From positions 165,139-229,138 of the forward strand of contig JACQUX010000038.1 in assembly GCA_016210045.1 (NCBI GenBank): DNA of 64,000 nt. The letters are read 5' to 3'. Under the pieces are notes generated by a model, which saw only the letters and a program-made list of their open reading frames with translations, had not been told where the DNA came from and searched no databases. Below, piece after piece: positions 2,707-12,532 of this stretch. Source of the DNA: Deltaproteobacteria bacterium. GTDB lineage: Bacteria > UBA10199 > GCA-002796325 > JACPFF01. Position 1 is the stretch's first letter. Every line of letters begins with the position of its first letter. A program made the position numbers and the translations under genes.

Positions 2707-4446
2707 CTACGCAGCGGGTTCTTGGGCTGGGGCCGGCTCTGTCGGGGCCTCGGCCTCAGCTGCTGCCTTGGCCGCCGCAGCGGCTGCGGCGATGCTGTCG
2801 TAGTCGCGGAGCGCGGCGCCCACTAATGTCGGATTTTCTGATTCCAGCGCGACCAACGCCGCGCGATAGCGCCCTTCCGCGTGCCACGGTGTGCGGAGGA
2901 CAGCGATGCTGCTGAGTCCCAACAACATCTGCTGTGCGTTGGCGAAGGCCGTCGGCTGTGTTGCGGCCAACTCGCGCTGCGCGGTCAGCAACGGCACGAC
3001 GACGGCGTCGAAAAATGCGGACAAGCGGTCGGGGCGTGTCTCGATCTCGGCGATCTCTTCCTCGATGGCCGCGCGCTGTTCGGCAACGGCGAGCACGAGT
3101 GTATCGGGATCCCGAGCGACGAAGAGGCCAACGAGGCGAAGAAACGCGGCTCTCTCTGTTTCACCCATTGTGTTCAGTGCGGCGAGTGCCGCTTGGCGGT
3201 CCAATACGAGAGTGCGTTGTGCGCGAAGGATTTCCAATTGTGCGGTGTCGCGGGCCTGCTCTTCGCCCAAGTGTAGCAAATATACGCCGCTGCTGGCCCC
3301 TCCACGGGCGTAAAAGGTTACATCCGCATTGCCGAGCTCAGCGTAGCGCAACCATGCCGGGAGTGGTGTTTCGAGATACGGCGCATCTATGTTGAGTCGC
3401 ACGCAGCTCGCGGCATCAGCGCTGGTCTTGACGTGGGCGATGACGTGCTCCAGTCGTGCATTGCACAGCGCCTTCACGCGCGCCAAGGCCGCTTGTACCG
3501 CGGCGAGATACGATTCGCGATCCGCCTCGAGCACGCGCTGCGCCTCGGGCGTCAAGAATCGCAGTTTTCCTGCAATAATTTGGTAGGCCTCGCGGAGCCT
3601 TCCCAAGATTGCGACGTCCACGTCCGGGTCCGTCGATGCCGCGTCACCCAACTGGTCAAGCCGCTCCAGGCCTTGCAGGCCGCGTGCAAAGAAGTGGAGC
3701 GCAATCTCCTGCGGCCTTTTTTCATTGGCCGCGCCGTGTGCGTAACATGTTGCCGCGACAAAAGCGTCGCCAAGGAATTTCACTGCGGACGTTGGTTCCT
3801 CCAACAAAACCGCCAGCCGGGCGCCGAGCTCCATCACGTCGATCACTGCCGGTCCTTTGGATTTTTTATCATCCTGCACGAACCACATGGCGCTGCGAAC
3901 CGCGTCGGTATCTGCGTCGCTTAGTGGCAAGCCGGCGTTCTCCAAGCGATCCGCCAGACGCTGTGCGTTGGCGAGCGTGGCATTCACCGCGCTGCCGCGA
4001 TGCCTTGCCCGATAATGTTCGGCGACCACGGCCGGAACCTCAGCCGCCGTGGCATACTGTCCCGGCGAGAGACGTCGTGCGATGGCTTGCTGCCATCCGG
4101 GGAGTGCCGCGAAGGTCTCGCGCGGCATCCAGACCAAGCGGCGATAGAGTTGGACCGCCTTGAGTGCGCCCAACGAAGCTCCGAGACTGAGCACCGCCAG
4201 TGTAATGCCTCCGACCGTCGCGGTTGTGGCCACGACGTCGGTCGGTTCTCCGTTGCCTCCTTCCCCGAGCTTCGTCGAGAAGACGCCGAGCGGTCCCATC
4301 GGCAATGCGGCCATGCCGAATGTGGCCCGTTCCAATCCCTCTTTGACTCGCGCTCCAAGCGTGCGGCGTTGCGCCAGCGCTATTGCCTCGCCCGTGGGAT
4401 GTGAAATCGCTGTGGTCGTCCGACGCCTCAGTTGCACACGCTGCAT
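2707..4446 (-). CDS. Hypothetical single-pass membrane protein with a large Ala/Leu/Arg-rich helical domain
   Basis: 579 aa ORF with one hydrophobic segment (VGGITLAVLSLGASLGAL) near the N-terminus. A GAGGAG Shine-Dalgarno lies 5 nt upstream of the ATG, which sits 17 nt after the TAA stop of the Hint-domain gene. I recognise no family. Confidence 0.55.
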   Translation of the reverse strand: MQRVQLRRRTTTAISHPTGEAIALAQRRTLGARVKEGLERATFGMAALPMGPLGVFSTKLGEGGNGEPTDVVATTATVGGITLAVLSLGASLGALKAVQLYRRLVWMPRETFAALPGWQQAIARRLSPGQYATAAEVPAVVAEHYRARHRGSAVNATLANAQRLADRLENAGLPLSDADTDAVRSAMWFVQDDKKSKGPAVIDVMELGARLAVLLEEPTSAVKFLGDAFVAATCYAHGAANEKRPQEIALHFFARGLQGLERLDQLGDAASTDPDVDVAILGRLREAYQIIAGKLRFLTPEAQRVLEADRESYLAAVQAALARVKALCNARLEHVIAHVKTSADAASCVRLNIDAPYLETPLPAWLRYAELGNADVTFYARGGASSGVYLLHLGEEQARDTAQLEILRAQRTLVLDRQAALAALNTMGETERAAFLRLVGLFVARDPDTLVLAVAEQRAAIEEEIAEIETRPDRLSAFFDAVVVPLLTAQRELAATQPTAFANAQQMLLGLSSIAVLRTPWHAEGRYRAALVALESENPTLVGAALRDYDSIAAAAAAAKAAAEAEAPTEPAPAQEPAA

Positions 4447-4462
4447 AGTGACTCCTCGATCA

Positions 4463-5935
4463 TTACAATTTCATGTTATGGGCCACGAACCAATGTTGCC
4501 CGCCGTCGGATGACACCAAATAGTTATGGATCGCTCCAGTCCCGAAGCCGAGATTGAAGAGTGCGAACGTCCCTTCCATGCTCATCGAGCCCGCCATCGA
4601 CAGCGCATAGGCCGATCCGTCCGGATTGATGAGCGTATCGCCTTCCTGCAATGCGCCCGCGTGGATCCAGCGTTCCGTGCCGTGGCGTTGTACGCGCAAT
4701 CGATGGATCGACGTCGTCTCGAGCGTGCCGAGTGCGCCGTTCGCGTCGGTCACGGCGAGCGAGAGCAGATCGGACGGAACGACGCCGTGCTGCATCAGTT
4801 GGCGCGGCGTCTGATACACGACGGCGCGCGTGTCCGGATCGAATCCCGCTACGGCCGGCAGTGGCTGTCCCGCAGCCTCCAACGCGGCGAGTGCGGCAAA
4901 CGAAATCGTGCCGCCGTCCGCCGTGCGCAGCACCGCGCGTTCGGTGAAACAGCCGCCGTAGCCCTTGTTGCAACTCCCGACGTCGAAGCTGACTTCCGTG
5001 TCGGGATAGATGCCAAACAGCCACGCGGCGTCGTTGAATTCGACGTCGATCGTGCCTTCACCCTCGCACGCCGCCCAGTCGCCATCGCTCTGCTGTGTGC
5101 GGCATTCAATGGTCTCGACAGACGCGAGGATCTCTGCCGTCTCAGTCCACTGGGTCGCAGCCGCAGCGGCCAGCGGCCGTAGGGCCTCCGGTACACCGAG
5201 CGCGAAGTACGTCATTTGTTTGATCTCGTCGCACCCCTGGCCCAACACCAAATCGCCCGGATCGCGCAATCCGCCTAAGCGCACATAAATGGACAGCCCG
5301 CGCGCGGAGAGATCGGCCAAATAGTCTTTCGTGATGGCCGGGGCCTGCGCGTACGGATGGCTCGCGGGATAATAACCGCGCGGATCGATCCCGCTGCGCA
5401 CCGAATGATCGAATGTGGCTTGGTCGACTTGCAGGACGTCTGCATCGCCGTCGCCCGGAACGCTGTTGAGGACCCACTTTCTTGCATACTCGCTGACCCG
5501 TGCGACCTCCAGAGACCAATCGAGCAACTCGGTGACCGCGCGCTGTTGCCCGATTGTGATGGGTCCGCCAGTGAGCGGTACAGCCGCGTAGCCGATCAGT
5601 CCGCGCAGATGGGCGCGATCGAATCGTTGCGGTGTCTCGGACGGCGTGGGAAGCAGGAAGTCGTCTTCACTGAGCATGCTGAACGGCGACACACGATCGA
5701 AGCGTTTGAGGATCGCGACGGCCTCGGGCGAGCAAAATATCGCGCTGGCGCTGCGTGAGATGGAGGTGAACGCGTCGACCGCCTCGCCACTGCCGGTCAT
5801 ATCCCAAATGGGATGTACTGCAGCACGGATGCACGGTGTCGGCGCCGCGGCCGTCGCCGCATTTGCCGTCGTTCCTTCCACTTCATATCCCGTCACCAGT
5901 TGCGCCAACGCTGTCCCGAGTCCAATTCCAACCAT
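4463..5935 (-). CDS. Protein with C-terminal Hint (Hedgehog/intein-like, bacterial intein-like BIL) domain; N-terminal region of unknown function
   Basis: The C-terminal ~160 aa run CFTERAVLRTADGGTISFAALAALEAAG...TSIHRLRV...WIHAGALQEGDTLINPDGS...FVAHN, then MKL and stop. That gives the Cys1 block A, the TxxH block B and the terminal HN of Hint/intein domains. I placed the start at ATG 5935 because a GGAGG Shine-Dalgarno lies 5 nt upstream. The ORF-track GTG start at 5983 would lie inside the conserved promoter-like motif. Confidence 0.6.
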   Translation of the reverse strand: MVGIGLGTALAQLVTGYEVEGTTANAATAAAPTPCIRAAVHPIWDMTGSGEAVDAFTSISRSASAIFCSPEAVAILKRFDRVSPFSMLSEDDFLLPTPSETPQRFDRAHLRGLIGYAAVPLTGGPITIGQQRAVTELLDWSLEVARVSEYARKWVLNSVPGDGDADVLQVDQATFDHSVRSGIDPRGYYPASHPYAQAPAITKDYLADLSARGLSIYVRLGGLRDPGDLVLGQGCDEIKQMTYFALGVPEALRPLAAAAATQWTETAEILASVETIECRTQQSDGDWAACEGEGTIDVEFNDAAWLFGIYPDTEVSFDVGSCNKGYGGCFTERAVLRTADGGTISFAALAALEAAGQPLPAVAGFDPDTRAVVYQTPRQLMQHGVVPSDLLSLAVTDANGALGTLETTSIHRLRVQRHGTERWIHAGALQEGDTLINPDGSAYALSMAGSMSMEGTFALFNLGFGTGAIHNYLVSSDGGQHWFVAHNMKL

Positions 5936-5968
5936 AAGTGCCTCCGCATGGGTTCCGTACTGTTCGCT

Positions 5969-5997
5969 GTATATCGGCGTCACGAAAAAAGAGTTGC
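5969..5997 (-). promoter_or_regulatory. ECF-sigma-type promoter motif, copy A (GCAAC-N16-CGATATAC) upstream of the Hint-domain gene
   Basis: On the coding strand the sequence is AGCAACtcttttttcgtgacgcCGATATACagcg, lying 34-62 nt upstream of ATG 5935. The same architecture is found at 8402-8430 and 14529-14558. Confidence 0.5.
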
Positions 5998-6145
5998 TAA
6001 GAAAATGCCTGGCCGTTTCCGGGAGTCATTAGGGAACTCATGCCTGGCTTGAATACTCCGCAATCGACCCGCAGGGCTAGCGCCACGGGCGCGCTGATGG
6101 GGAGGCTCCAAATCCGCGAACGAGGACACGCGCACGCCGTCGTGC

Positions 6146-8380
6146 TTATGGCATGTTGCCTGCCGGGGGTGGGGGACAGTCTGGCATGTGCGGTTCCGCC
6201 GGGATATCGGCGGCGCAACGGAAGCCGATGAACTTGGAGCGCTGCGCGGGGTGCCACCGGCGGTCGGTGACATCGCGGATATCCGGGACCGTTTGATCGA
6301 CGGCGATCGCGTCGTCACACTCATTCAGCGGATCGGAGTCTGGATTGATATGATACGCATTGCCAACTACGACGGGTAGTCTGTCTCCGTCGAGTTCCGC
6401 GGTCAGTTCATAGACCGGACCGACCAGGTCGTGGATCCCCAACGGATTGGCCGGTGCGGTGGCGACGGACAACGGCCGCTTGGTGCCGATCGCCATTTCG
6501 TCGGCGCGTAGTTCGCCGCTGCGGGTGCCGAACTGGTTGTTCCCGCCGGCGGTCGCCAGATATTGCCATTCGGCTAGTGTGAGGAGCCGTTTGCCGGCGG
6601 AAAAGGCGAAGAAGAGGGCCTCCCAGAGGGTCACTTTGACGACCGGCTGATTGGGAGCGCCATGAGATTGGGGCAGCCGCCGTTGCGTGGCGACGGGGAC
6701 AATTCGCTCCACCTGCATCGCGTACGCATGGAAACGATGCTCGCTGCGATTCTGCCGAATCCACGCCTCCGCGTCGTTTTCGTTGCGGAAGCCGCCGACC
6801 AGCACGGAGTAGCGCCCGTCGATCTGACCGAAGACCGCGAAGGGCCTCGTGGCATAACGGCCGCAATGGGCATCGAAGGCCTCGTTCGTGACCACATGGG
6901 GATCACAGTAGAAGGGCGCGATGGCGACCACATGGAGGCTGCCGTCAACACCGCGGCTCGTGAAGCCCGTCATTCCCGCCACTTTGACCATTCCGATGAA
7001 ATCCCCGGTGCCATATTCCATGACCGTGTTCGGCGCGGCCAGTTGCAGCGGGTTCGGTGAGGGCGCGAAAGGCGTGCGCCGCACACGTGGAGCGGCCTTC
7101 CCAACCGCGCGCTGGGCTGCGGCCTTGGCCTGTCGTTCTTCCTGTGCCCGTGCAGTGCGCAACGTGTCGATTGCGGCCATCACCAACGCGCGCCGTTGCC
7201 GACGGCGGATCTGCCACCAGTGCGCCGATTCCGGCAGTAGATCCAACAGGGCCGCGAGGGCGGGGACCGCGTCGGTGGCGGCCAGAGTCGAGACATGGCG
7301 CACCGCGGCGGCGACTGTGGACCATCGGTTACGCACGGTGCCGGCGTCGAGGCCCCGCAGGAAGGCCACTTGATGTTGGGTCGTGACCTGCTGCTCCGCT
7401 TGGCGGATTAATTGGGCCTGCTCGCCGGCGCTGCGTTGATCGCGGCCGGCCAAACGGCGGAGATTGACGAGGGCAATCTGCTGGCCCTGCGTGAGGAGTC
7501 CAAATACGGTGAAGGGCTCATCGACCACGGTCCGACGAGTGGCTTCATCCAGTCCATAGAGGATCTCGCGGACGGCCAGTTCGCGCTCACGATCGGGCAG
7601 GACCTCCAACAGCGTAATCGAGAGGATGTAGAGCAGTAGATCGCTGGCGGCATTCAACTGGTGGGTGGGGTACTCCACGACGGTGTGGACCAGTCGGGAG
7701 ACCAGCCCGCGCAACAGGTCGCGCACAAATTCATACCGGCCGTCGACGGCGCGGATCACGTCGCCGCAATCGACGGCCAACATCTGACAGAATTGTTGCC
7801 ATGGCAGTTCGTCGCCCGCAAAGCGTTCCGGAAAGTCGCGCGGAAACATCATACGCAGGATGACCTCGCTTCGGTCCTCGGCCGCGGCGAGGTTCACGAC
7901 TCGACGCAAGTGATCGAAGTCCAGCAGGGAGCGCTCGGCAATCCATAACAGGCCATGATGGGGCGCGGCCGCCACCGGGCCCGAGGCCGTGGTCGCTAAA
8001 GCGGTTGACGGGCTGGTGGCATCAGTGACCGGGACTGCAGTCTCATTCGCGACAGCAGGTTCAGCGCTGGTCGGTGTAGGTGGCTGGGTCTCTCCGCTCA
8101 TACTGAAATGCGGCACTGCGGCGAAGCGAGTGCTGGCGGGTTCGGACGGTGACAGCGCGTGTGCAAAGGTTACTGGTCGATCCGGGACATGCGAAAAGGT
8201 GTCGCCGTTGGCACAGCGGAGGAGTGGCGCAGTGGCTGCATCCGGAGCGATCGGGTGGTGAGGCCGATGGGGAGCGGTCGGTGGTTGTGTTCGCGTCCGT
8301 AACGAAGGCCGAGTGGTCGCGCTAGTCCGCCCCCCCCCGTCTCCCCAGCGTCGCATGTGTGTCGTGCGTCTCCAACTCAT
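6146..8380 (-). CDS. Protein with unknown N-terminal region and C-terminal FGE/SUMF1-type (formylglycine-generating enzyme family) domain
   Basis: The C-terminal ~300 aa contain MVKVAGMTGFTSRGVDGSLHVVAIAPFYCDPHVVTNEAFDAHCG, ...VTLWEALFFAFSAGKRLLTLAEWQYLATAG..., ...NPLGIHDLVGPVYELTAE... and ...SKFIGFRCA, the hallmark blocks of FGE-sulfatase domains. The N-terminal ~430 aa are helical with no recognisable family. An RBS (GAGGAGAG) precedes the ATG at 8380. Confidence 0.65.
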   Translation of the reverse strand: MSWRRTTHMRRWGDGGGRTSATTRPSLRTRTQPPTAPHRPHHPIAPDAATAPLLRCANGDTFSHVPDRPVTFAHALSPSEPASTRFAAVPHFSMSGETQPPTPTSAEPAVANETAVPVTDATSPSTALATTASGPVAAAPHHGLLWIAERSLLDFDHLRRVVNLAAAEDRSEVILRMMFPRDFPERFAGDELPWQQFCQMLAVDCGDVIRAVDGRYEFVRDLLRGLVSRLVHTVVEYPTHQLNAASDLLLYILSITLLEVLPDRERELAVREILYGLDEATRRTVVDEPFTVFGLLTQGQQIALVNLRRLAGRDQRSAGEQAQLIRQAEQQVTTQHQVAFLRGLDAGTVRNRWSTVAAAVRHVSTLAATDAVPALAALLDLLPESAHWWQIRRRQRRALVMAAIDTLRTARAQEERQAKAAAQRAVGKAAPRVRRTPFAPSPNPLQLAAPNTVMEYGTGDFIGMVKVAGMTGFTSRGVDGSLHVVAIAPFYCDPHVVTNEAFDAHCGRYATRPFAVFGQIDGRYSVLVGGFRNENDAEAWIRQNRSEHRFHAYAMQVERIVPVATQRRLPQSHGAPNQPVVKVTLWEALFFAFSAGKRLLTLAEWQYLATAGGNNQFGTRSGELRADEMAIGTKRPLSVATAPANPLGIHDLVGPVYELTAELDGDRLPVVVGNAYHINPDSDPLNECDDAIAVDQTVPDIRDVTDRRWHPAQRSKFIGFRCAADIPAEPHMPDCPPPPAGNMP

Positions 8381-11341: not shown

Positions 11342-12532
11342 TTACTCCAGATATTGGAAAAGTTCGGCCCATGGAATGGCCAAAATTTGTCCGATGCGTT
11401 GTGCTCGCGCCACTTGGCACACAAGATACGCAGCGTGCGGCCGGTACTCTTTGCAAAAATGCGCCAGGCCTTTTGTGTCCGCGAGTGTGGGCCGTGCAGT
11501 TGCTTTGACTTCGATAGCAATGCGCTGTTGACCGGTCTCCAACACCATATCGACTTCATCCCCCTGCTTATGCCGCCAATAAAAGAGTTGCGTTCGGGGG
11601 GAGCGCCGCGCCATCAATTCCAGGACCATCAAATGCTCGAACAACACGCCTTGTTGGAGGGGGAGGAGTCCGGGACCATGCCCGATCTGCGCTGCGGCGT
11701 TGCGGACCCCGAGGTCGAAGAAGTAATACTTCGCCGTGCGGAACACGGCATCGCGCACTTGGCCGAAGGCGGGTAGGCGTTGGATAATCAGCGAATCTTC
11801 AAGGATTTGAAAATACTCCCGGATCGTGGTGTGGCTCAGTCCGATGCGCCCGCCGATCTTCGAGAAATTGGGCGCCCCACCCGATTCTAGGGCAGCCAAA
11901 CGAAGAAATTGCGTAAAGCGCGGCACATTGCGAACCGCTGCCTCGGCGCGAATCTCTTCCTCCAAATAGAGGTGTGTATAGGCATTGAGATTGCCTTCGC
12001 GCTGCGTGAAGTCCGTTTGTGAAAGAATTCCGGGCAACATGCCATAGCGCAAGATTTCTCCCAGCCGAGAGAGGGGGAACCCAGTTTCTTGCCATGTCAA
12101 CGGAGGCAGGAAGTGGAGTTGCACTCGGCCGGGGAGCCAGTTCGTGCGCAAACGTTTCATCTTCCGAGCCGACGAGCCAGTGGCGGCGAGAACGATGCGG
12201 CGATGATCCAGGAGAAATTGTAGCGGATCCATGACGGCAGGGATTTTCTGGATCTCGTCGATGTAGAGGAAGAGCGGCGTGCGGGAACGTTTCGCTTCGA
12301 CCTCGCGCACGATGCACTCGGGGTCCTGTTCGATCGCTTCGCGTTGGGAGGGAAGTTGGAAATAATAGGTGAGACACTGCGCGGCGGGAAGCTGCGCGAA
12401 CAGGGCCTCCAACAGCGTGGATTTTCCCGTCTGACGGGGGCCGAAGAGGAGAAACGACTGGCGGCGATCGAGTAGTTGCTGCAAGCGCGAGACGGCAGAT
12501 CGAGGGAAAGTAGATGTTTCAAAATTGTTCAT
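11342..12532 (-). CDS. AAA+ ATPase with DUF4143-type C-terminal domain
   Basis: Walker A (LLFGPRQTGKSTLL) and Walker B (LFLYIDEIQ) motifs, with a C-terminal region typical of the widespread ATPase/DUF4143 family. 396 aa. Confidence 0.75.
   Translation of the reverse strand: MNNFETSTFPRSAVSRLQQLLDRRQSFLLFGPRQTGKSTLLEALFAQLPAAQCLTYYFQLPSQREAIEQDPECIVREVEAKRSRTPLFLYIDEIQKIPAVMDPLQFLLDHRRIVLAATGSSARKMKRLRTNWLPGRVQLHFLPPLTWQETGFPLSRLGEILRYGMLPGILSQTDFTQREGNLNAYTHLYLEEEIRAEAAVRNVPRFTQFLRLAALESGGAPNFSKIGGRIGLSHTTIREYFQILEDSLIIQRLPAFGQVRDAVFRTAKYYFFDLGVRNAAAQIGHGPGLLPLQQGVLFEHLMVLELMARRSPRTQLFYWRHKQGDEVDMVLETGQQRIAIEVKATARPTLADTKGLAHFCKEYRPHAAYLVCQVARAQRIGQILAIPWAELFQYLE

Follow-up and report, generated by a model that had tools for sequence, protein, structure and literature searches.

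Protein splicing, the maturation of Hedgehog and the release of toxins depend on the chemistry of Hint domains, which also serve widely as tools in protein engineering; their established reactions were reviewed in PMC5874633 and PMC4031507. In Hedgehog proteins a thioester is formed and then transferred (PMC5874633), and bacterial intein-like (BIL) domains, by the account of Dassa 2004 that is given in PMC5874633, undergo cleavage at either terminus and in some cases splice in the absence of a +1 nucleophile. PT-HINT domains are found within large secreted proteins, immediately ahead of a toxin or variable domain at the C-terminus (PMC3482391, PMC3113570), and a bacterial group (MXAN_6253, plu1731) whose Hint-like domain is C-terminal was noted by Burglin in 2008 (PMC2362128). 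The protein analyzed here also ends in a Hint domain, with three residues left behind it. It is encoded on the minus strand (4463..5935) of a 64,000-nucleotide stretch from a Deltaproteobacteria bacterium (assembly GCA_016210045.1, contig JACQUX010000038.1, positions 165,139 to 229,138), which is called the window below; positions are those of the window unless a related locus is named, and all features given with coordinates lie on its minus strand. This Hint precursor (490 aa, 52 kDa; MBI4238979.1, HY696_11290) is composed of a 328-aa N-terminal domain, a 159-aa Hint domain and Met-Lys-Leu followed by the stop codon TAA.

The C-terminal 159 residues (residues 329-487, 16.8 kDa, 4475..4951) are a genuine Hint domain of the intein/Hedgehog type, with a likeness far beyond chance. 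When an alignment of 41 C-terminal domain sequences (A4) was used as a profile against PDB, inteins and a BIL domain were matched with E values from 3e-7 to 1e-5, among them the Pho RadA intein (3.2e-7), the Tvo VMA intein (4.5e-7) and the BIL domain 2lwy (7.8e-7). The AlphaFold2 model of residues 324-490 reached a pLDDT of 95 and a pTM of 0.89 and has the horseshoe-shaped all-beta form of the Hint fold, and Foldseek with this model returned exclusively inteins, BIL domains or Hedgehog at PDB ranks 1-48. A first-pass annotation of the window, made from the letters alone, had assigned the last ~160 residues to the intein/BIL/Hedgehog type, and the PDB profiles, AlphaFold2 and Foldseek all agree with it.

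Domain libraries barely detect this clade, which is true for both Pfam and NCBIfam. The 490-aa protein alone gave only PT-HINT in Pfam (E=0.005, a sub-threshold 17.5 bits against a cut-off of 27.7 bits), and no match was obtained for it in the NCBIfam and PADLOC scans. Among 55 family members (E<=0.01), PT-HINT was the most frequent Pfam match with 16 proteins, followed by Hint with 7, Intein_splicing with 5 and Vint with 1, and Hint_2 was matched by none; TIGR01445 (intein_Nterm) was found in 26 members of this set. When ten members were scored singly, the PT-HINT threshold was passed only by P0034 (33.5 bits).

A HMMER search with a profile of three close sequences against 1.84 billion representative proteins returned 71 matches. 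Word-indexed protein searches found only two homologues with the full-length protein and no match with the 41-sequence Hint alignment; the window protein itself was not returned, because a fragment of 49 aa stands for its cluster in the protein collection at 90% identity. The clade is rare: its sequences fall into 63 clusters at 50% identity, most of them derived from metagenome assemblies, with protein lengths of 150-814 residues. When the motif Gx[HAS]WFVAHN was scanned for, 185,579 GTDB species genomes yielded a single locus, as did the JGI metagenomes, and viral contigs yielded none. It is apparently an undescribed subgroup, always placed at the protein C-terminus, and no description of it was found in the searchable literature, which did not cover the original BIL paper (Amitai 2003).

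The positions known from Hint chemistry were all in place. The domain begins with CFTERAVLRTADGGTISF at Cys329 (4949..4951), the predicted thioester-forming nucleophile of block A, in the context Gly-Gly-Cys329-Phe-Thr-Glu-Arg. All 50 aligned members have Cys1 and Phe2 of the domain; Cys is preceded by Gly in 23 of these 50 and by a small residue (Gly/Ser/Ala) in 36, and the N-terminal domain terminates in Gly-Gly in many members and in Tyr-Gly-Gly in the window protein. Between blocks A and B lies Tyr-Gln-Thr-Pro (residues 374-377, 4805..4816), which represents the clade signature Tyr-Gln-x-Pro; Pro377 was invariant and Gln375 was conserved in at least 90% of sequences in alignments A3 and A4. 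In addition, a clade-specific helix follows block A. Block B, the TxxH motif, is Thr408-Ser-Ile-His411 (4703..4714, within TSIHRLRV), and its Thr and His were invariant in 55 and in 41 aligned family members. Block G closes the domain with Trp-Phe-Val-Ala-His486-Asn487 (FVAHN), of which His486-Asn487 (4475..4480, with the Asn487 codon at 4475-4477) are the last two Hint residues and the predicted site of Asn cyclisation. The final His was invariant, and Asn was found in 46 of 49 members with Ser in the remaining three. Since these residues persist among clusters that are 27-76% identical to the window protein within the Hint domain, the catalytic set is under selection, and judged by its predicted catalytic residues the domain appears catalytically intact. 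All the motifs quoted in the first-pass annotation were present, from CFTERAVLRTADGGTISF through TSIHRLRV and FVAHN to Met-Lys-Leu and TAA, and the conservation of Cys1, the block-B His and the terminal Asn, on which it had made its claim depend, was found among the homologues.

In 63 of the 71 matches nothing but a short tail follows the Hint domain. These proteins end in W-[FIV]-V-A-H-N, or in some cases His-Ser, plus 1-6 residues. The terminal position is the native architecture of the clade, because it is kept in these 63 matches and because the short tail is itself conserved. In the window protein the tail, or mini C-extein, is Met-Lys-Leu (4466..4474), which stands between Asn487 and TAA. 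Ser, Thr or Cys was never the first residue in the 64 family tails, and the +1 residue of the window protein is Met. Exactly one Lys was present in 60 of the 64 tails, most often at position +1 (28 tails) or +2 (19), and Lys made up 31% of tail residues against a background of 4.8%. Three of the four Lys-less tails come after His-Ser rather than His-Asn.

The non-terminal matches include the phage tape-measure proteins P0058 and P0059, in which the PT-HINT domains are of the classical internal kind. They scored 4e-29 to 4e-52 on Pfam PT-HINT versus about 1e-8 with the terminal-clade profile, and therefore the terminal clade is a separate branch, whose nearest annotated kin is PT-HINT/BIL-A. 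Both phage proteins (PhageMin_Tail, 3411 and 3951 aa) carry two or three internal PT-HINT domains each. Another protein, P0017 (4359 aa), showed about 20 weak repeated matches at a spacing of about 85-190 residues, which cover only the part from block A to block B (model positions 18-79).

Compared with the described systems, the clade belongs to the Hint superfamily and yet misses defining features of each named family. With BIL-A/PT-HINT (PF07591) it shares the Cys-Phe start, TxxH, the His-Asn end, a non-nucleophilic residue after Asn and the largest number of Pfam matches. It differs in that the window protein stays below the gathering threshold, only 1-6 residues follow the domain, no obvious signal peptide is seen in most members, and Tyr-Gln-x-Pro, the helix after block A and the Lys-bearing tail are present. 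In polymorphic toxins the layout is reversed, with Hint just before the C-terminal toxin. For BIL-B/Hint_2 (PF13403) no match was obtained, either in the window protein (E<=1) or in the 55 members (E<=0.01). Thus the placement in BIL-A or BIL-B by profile, which had been suggested earlier, did not succeed, with Hint_2 absent and PT-HINT below its threshold.

Hedgehog (Hog, PF01079) resembles the window protein in its variable N-terminal cargo, its Hint domain at the C-terminal end, its Gly-Cys-Phe motif (Gly-Gly-Cys-Phe at window residues 327-330, with the junction before Cys) and the predicted release of the N-domain through a thioester. Hog domains are not known to have the terminal His-Asn, whereas the window domain keeps this intein/BIL-A-type ending. 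The window protein has neither a sterol/adduct-recognition region, with three residues after Hint, nor a secretory signal, and PF01079 was absent from it and gave weak matches in 7 of 55 family members. Canonical inteins share the C-terminal His-Asn (His486-Asn487 in the window), but the window domain is not inserted in a conserved host protein, has no +1 Cys/Ser/Thr, and with a C-extein of 1-6 residues in the clade there is nothing substantial to splice. BIL2 of the Tetrahymena BUBL protein (PDB 6TMM/6Y75) is eukaryotic and lies between two ubiquitin-like domains, whereas the window N-domain is not recognisably ubiquitin-like and its C-flank has just three residues.

Vint (PF14623, in VWA-Vint proteins) and the clade have in common a terminal Hint-type domain in a probably intracellular protein, and a weak VWA is seen in several members. 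They differ in that the window protein has no VWA or Vint match, Vint was matched by one of 55 members and the structural similarity is weak. In the bacterial group of Burglin the Hint-type domain is likewise C-terminal and the protein probably intracellular, but the domains start with Ser-Cys-Met-Ala or Gly-Cys-Ile and, in the sequences read, His-Asn is absent from the end, and therefore the group is distinct from the terminal clade. A domain that is always last, with both cleavage sites and a Lys mini-tail, fits no described layout, because inteins are internal, BIL and PT-HINT domains precede a payload, and Hedgehog, not known to have the terminal Asn, carries a sterol-binding region in addition. 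It is an unusual architecture that has been conserved, in a fold family that is very well known. The clade offers a bacterial comparator for the origin of the eukaryotic Hog and Vint domains, an open question raised in PMC2362128.

It is fairly probable that the window protein is a self-processing precursor, in which an intact C-terminal Hint domain of a distinct, always-terminal clade releases the N-terminal domain (residues 1-328, 34.9 kDa, 4952..5935), the predicted cargo. In the AlphaFold2 model the Hint domain folds into its horseshoe. Cys329, with the help of Thr408 and His411, would then attack the carbonyl of Gly328, and an N-to-S acyl shift would give a Gly328-Cys329 thioester, as suggested by the invariant residues and by intein, BIL and Hedgehog chemistry. 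Asn487, assisted by His486, would cyclise and cut off Met-Lys-Leu, and water or an amine would resolve the thioester, by which the 34.9-kDa N-domain would be freed from the 16.8-kDa Hint domain. The freed N-domain probably works with the translationally coupled 579-aa protein encoded downstream. Variable N-terminal regions on a constant Hint domain fit a design of cargo plus releasing module, and cleavage or ligation of the N-terminal part, as proposed in the first-pass annotation, stays the most plausible role. If active, the domain would be a compact natural module of 159 residues that removes itself from the C-terminus and leaves a tiny scar; if it is a plain self-cleaving pro-domain, it would be a modest addition to a well-known superfamily.

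Several points weigh against a self-processing precursor of this kind. Every chemical step of the processing rests on inference, the N-terminal domain is without recognisable function, and the full-length AlphaFold2 model from a three-sequence alignment had a pLDDT of 40, which is unusable for the N-domain. Most family members show no evident signal peptide, and the partner gene is kept only among the three closest loci. In addition, N-terminal release alone, as in Hedgehog, would need neither His-Asn nor a conserved tail. Since both are conserved, the picture of simple hydrolysis is perhaps incomplete, and there is room for a variant with ligation.

In such a variant the Hint domain would transfer the N-domain to an amine or hydroxyl through the thioester rather than simply cleave it. 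The acceptor could be the Lys of the tail or the amino group of the freed tail, giving a peptide or isopeptide between the N-domain and Met-Lys-Leu, or it could be the lysine of an external protein, a lipid or a small molecule. The single Lys in 60 of 64 tails, far above background, would be accounted for in this way, as would the Gly-Gly end of many N-domains and the tendency of Lys and the terminal Asn to vanish together. There are also precedents, since Hedgehog ligates cholesterol and Tetrahymena BIL2 forms an ATP-free isopeptide with lysine (PMC8616854), and splicing by BIL-A without a +1 nucleophile is part of the account of Dassa 2004 in PMC5874633. Conservation, however, cannot prove that Lys is a nucleophile, for it might serve the stability of the active site or of the last strand; the co-loss is based on just three His-Ser clusters and one truncated sequence; and an acceptor-binding region such as the sterol-recognition region of Hedgehog is absent. 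Ligation is therefore judged rather unlikely, but it might, if the domain is active, represent a new lysine-directed ligation chemistry.

A wider form of this proposal, held to be decidedly unlikely, is that of an ATP-independent conjugation or "mini-splicing" module, in which the thioester at the Gly-Gly end of a variable N-domain would be passed to the tail Lys or to a partner lysine, lipid or small molecule. It would correspond, among prokaryotes, to Hedgehog cholesteroylation or to the ubiquitin-like conjugation of ciliate BUBL and, together with the weak VWA-Hint members, would be a candidate for the bacterial ancestry of Hog/Vint-type proteins.

The domain could also be catalytically silent, kept uncleaved in vivo as a structural or binding module, in line with some Hint-fold domains that are known mainly from sequence, such as Vint and the bacterial C-terminal Hint-like group (PMC2362128). 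Inactive relatives, however, normally lose their catalytic residues, and in this clade the residues for both cleavage reactions are invariant or nearly so down to 27% identity while their surroundings drift, so that a silent module seems very improbable.

A decayed element, either a toxin or BIL carrier minus its payload, as the first-pass annotation had considered, or an intein whose C-extein was severed by a stop and is now the downstream gene, might be suspected from the best Pfam match to PT-HINT and from a gene only 16 nt downstream, but it is already contradicted by the family data and is extremely improbable, as 63 independent clusters have the same tail of 1-6 residues with its conserved Lys, the +1 residue is never Ser, Thr or Cys, the downstream gene has its own ribosome-binding site and start, the downstream genes differ among members (UbiA, a Castor/RCK protein, a Mg-chelatase-like ATPase, AbiEii on the opposite strand), and no uninterrupted host-protein homologue joining the N-domain and the downstream protein was found in protein searches.

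For the proposed cargo of the self-processing precursor, no Pfam, NCBIfam or PADLOC match was obtained over residues 1-328. A module of about 250 residues is common to the N-terminal part of the window protein and of at least 11 other clusters (at least 12 clusters in all), and it is composed of an EF-hand-like loop, a helical stretch, a Cys...Tyr-x-Glu-x-x-Val-Pro segment and a Cys-x4-12-Cys hairpin. The loop has the consensus LDxNxDGxxxxxDF in the shared module and is degenerate in the window protein, where it reads DRVSPFSMLSEDDF (residues 80-93, 5657..5698); alignment A6 shows near-invariance at Asp80 and Asp92. A profile of the module against PDB gave only weak EF-hand matches over the loop (calerythrin E=0.0024; calerythrin and calmodulins E=0.002-0.1). 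The N-terminus of the window protein, MVGIGLGTALAQLV, is weakly hydrophobic (Kyte-Doolittle 1.19), has no charged n-region and is not a classical signal peptide.

The N-terminal regions vary among family members, and some have weak PKD and VWA matches directly before Hint; the VWA matches in other family members are sub-threshold. The weak VWA-Hint members resemble the eukaryotic VWA-Vint architecture. Weak PKD or VWA before a terminal Hint was seen in P0013, P0023 (L006 6189-8231), P0025, P0027, P0036 and P0010. In another locus, a VWA protein of 919 aa (L007 1395-4154, E=1.3e-7) shares 4 nt with the start of P0003, which is homologous to the window protein.

The open reading frame of the Hint precursor spans 4463..5983, and the ATG at 5935 is its probable start, because a GGAGG ribosome-binding site (5941..5945) was read 5 nt 5' of it, the N-terminus of the closest homologue lies at the equivalent Met, and the resulting 490-aa translation is identical to the NCBI protein (MBI4238979.1, "hypothetical protein HY696_11290", from a 299,721-bp contig of a Deltaproteobacteria metagenome-assembled genome). 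An extracytoplasmic function (ECF) type promoter had been assigned to this gene earlier, and this was not supported, as GAAC-N14-19-CGT was absent from the minus strand in the upstream region 5936-6145; the motif was not enriched across the window either (59 observed, 80 expected). A scan upstream of the Hint gene showed no sigma-70-like site. The G+C of the window is flat, at about 0.61-0.64.

The candidate partner is the downstream gene (2707..4446; MBI4238978.1), which encodes 579 aa and has a GAGGAG ribosome-binding site (4452..4457) within the spacer. This site was correctly read in the first-pass annotation, while the spacing is 16 nt instead of the 17 nt given there. The label of a single-pass membrane protein is based on one moderately hydrophobic segment at residues ~71-97 (Kyte-Doolittle 19-residue maximum 1.75), and can be kept only with that reservation. 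No Pfam, NCBIfam or PADLOC match was found for the protein, and the profile search against PDB returned only noise (E~0.2). Only in the two closest loci, L005 and L001, is the Hint gene followed, after 8-10 nt, by a gene of the same size (~580 aa). Identity of the encoded protein was 42% in L005 and 22-24% in L001 and its copies, where the similarity was colinear over the full length (E=2e-4). Beside more distant family members, unrelated genes adjoin the Hint gene. A role as partner or immunity-like component, which was suggested earlier, is thus supported by the tight coupling and by the two closest loci, but not by the distant ones, and it is plausible for the sub-branch of the window only.

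Upstream of the Hint gene, an open reading frame of 744 aa (6146-8380, minus strand) is rich in Pro and Thr at its N-terminus, with an FGE-sulfatase ("FGS") domain at the C-terminus (Pfam E=6e-19), and no PADLOC match was found for it. FGE-sulfatase domains have been described as variable effectors or sensors in bacterial conflict systems (PMC7159879). The protein was considered as a third component and rejected, with no homologue in 16 of 16 related loci, and it shows no similarity to the VWA protein encoded upstream of P0003. P0003 and P0016 each have an upstream gene that overlaps the Hint gene by 4 nt, and these two upstream genes are mutually dissimilar.

The remaining neighbourhood in the window is ordinary, with an M20 peptidase, a 4HBT thioesterase, a peroxiredoxin, PolX, endonuclease III and an AAA_14/DUF4143 ATPase, and no toxin-antitoxin genes were seen in it. 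The AAA_14/DUF4143 ATPase lies about 5.4 kb from the Hint gene (11342-12532, minus strand), and an AAA_14/DUF4143 pair is found directly upstream of P0004 (L008 6756-7892), which may be coincidence. In six related loci (L001, L005, L007, L008, L011 and L016), toxin-antitoxin genes were present within a few kb of the Hint gene, including AbiEii, ParE, the HI1420-downstream type, BrnA, HigB/Gp49 with a helix-turn-helix protein, VapBC and an MNT-type nucleotidyltransferase pair. These neighbours suggest that the related loci belong to accessory-genome islands. A Y1 transposase is also carried by L016.

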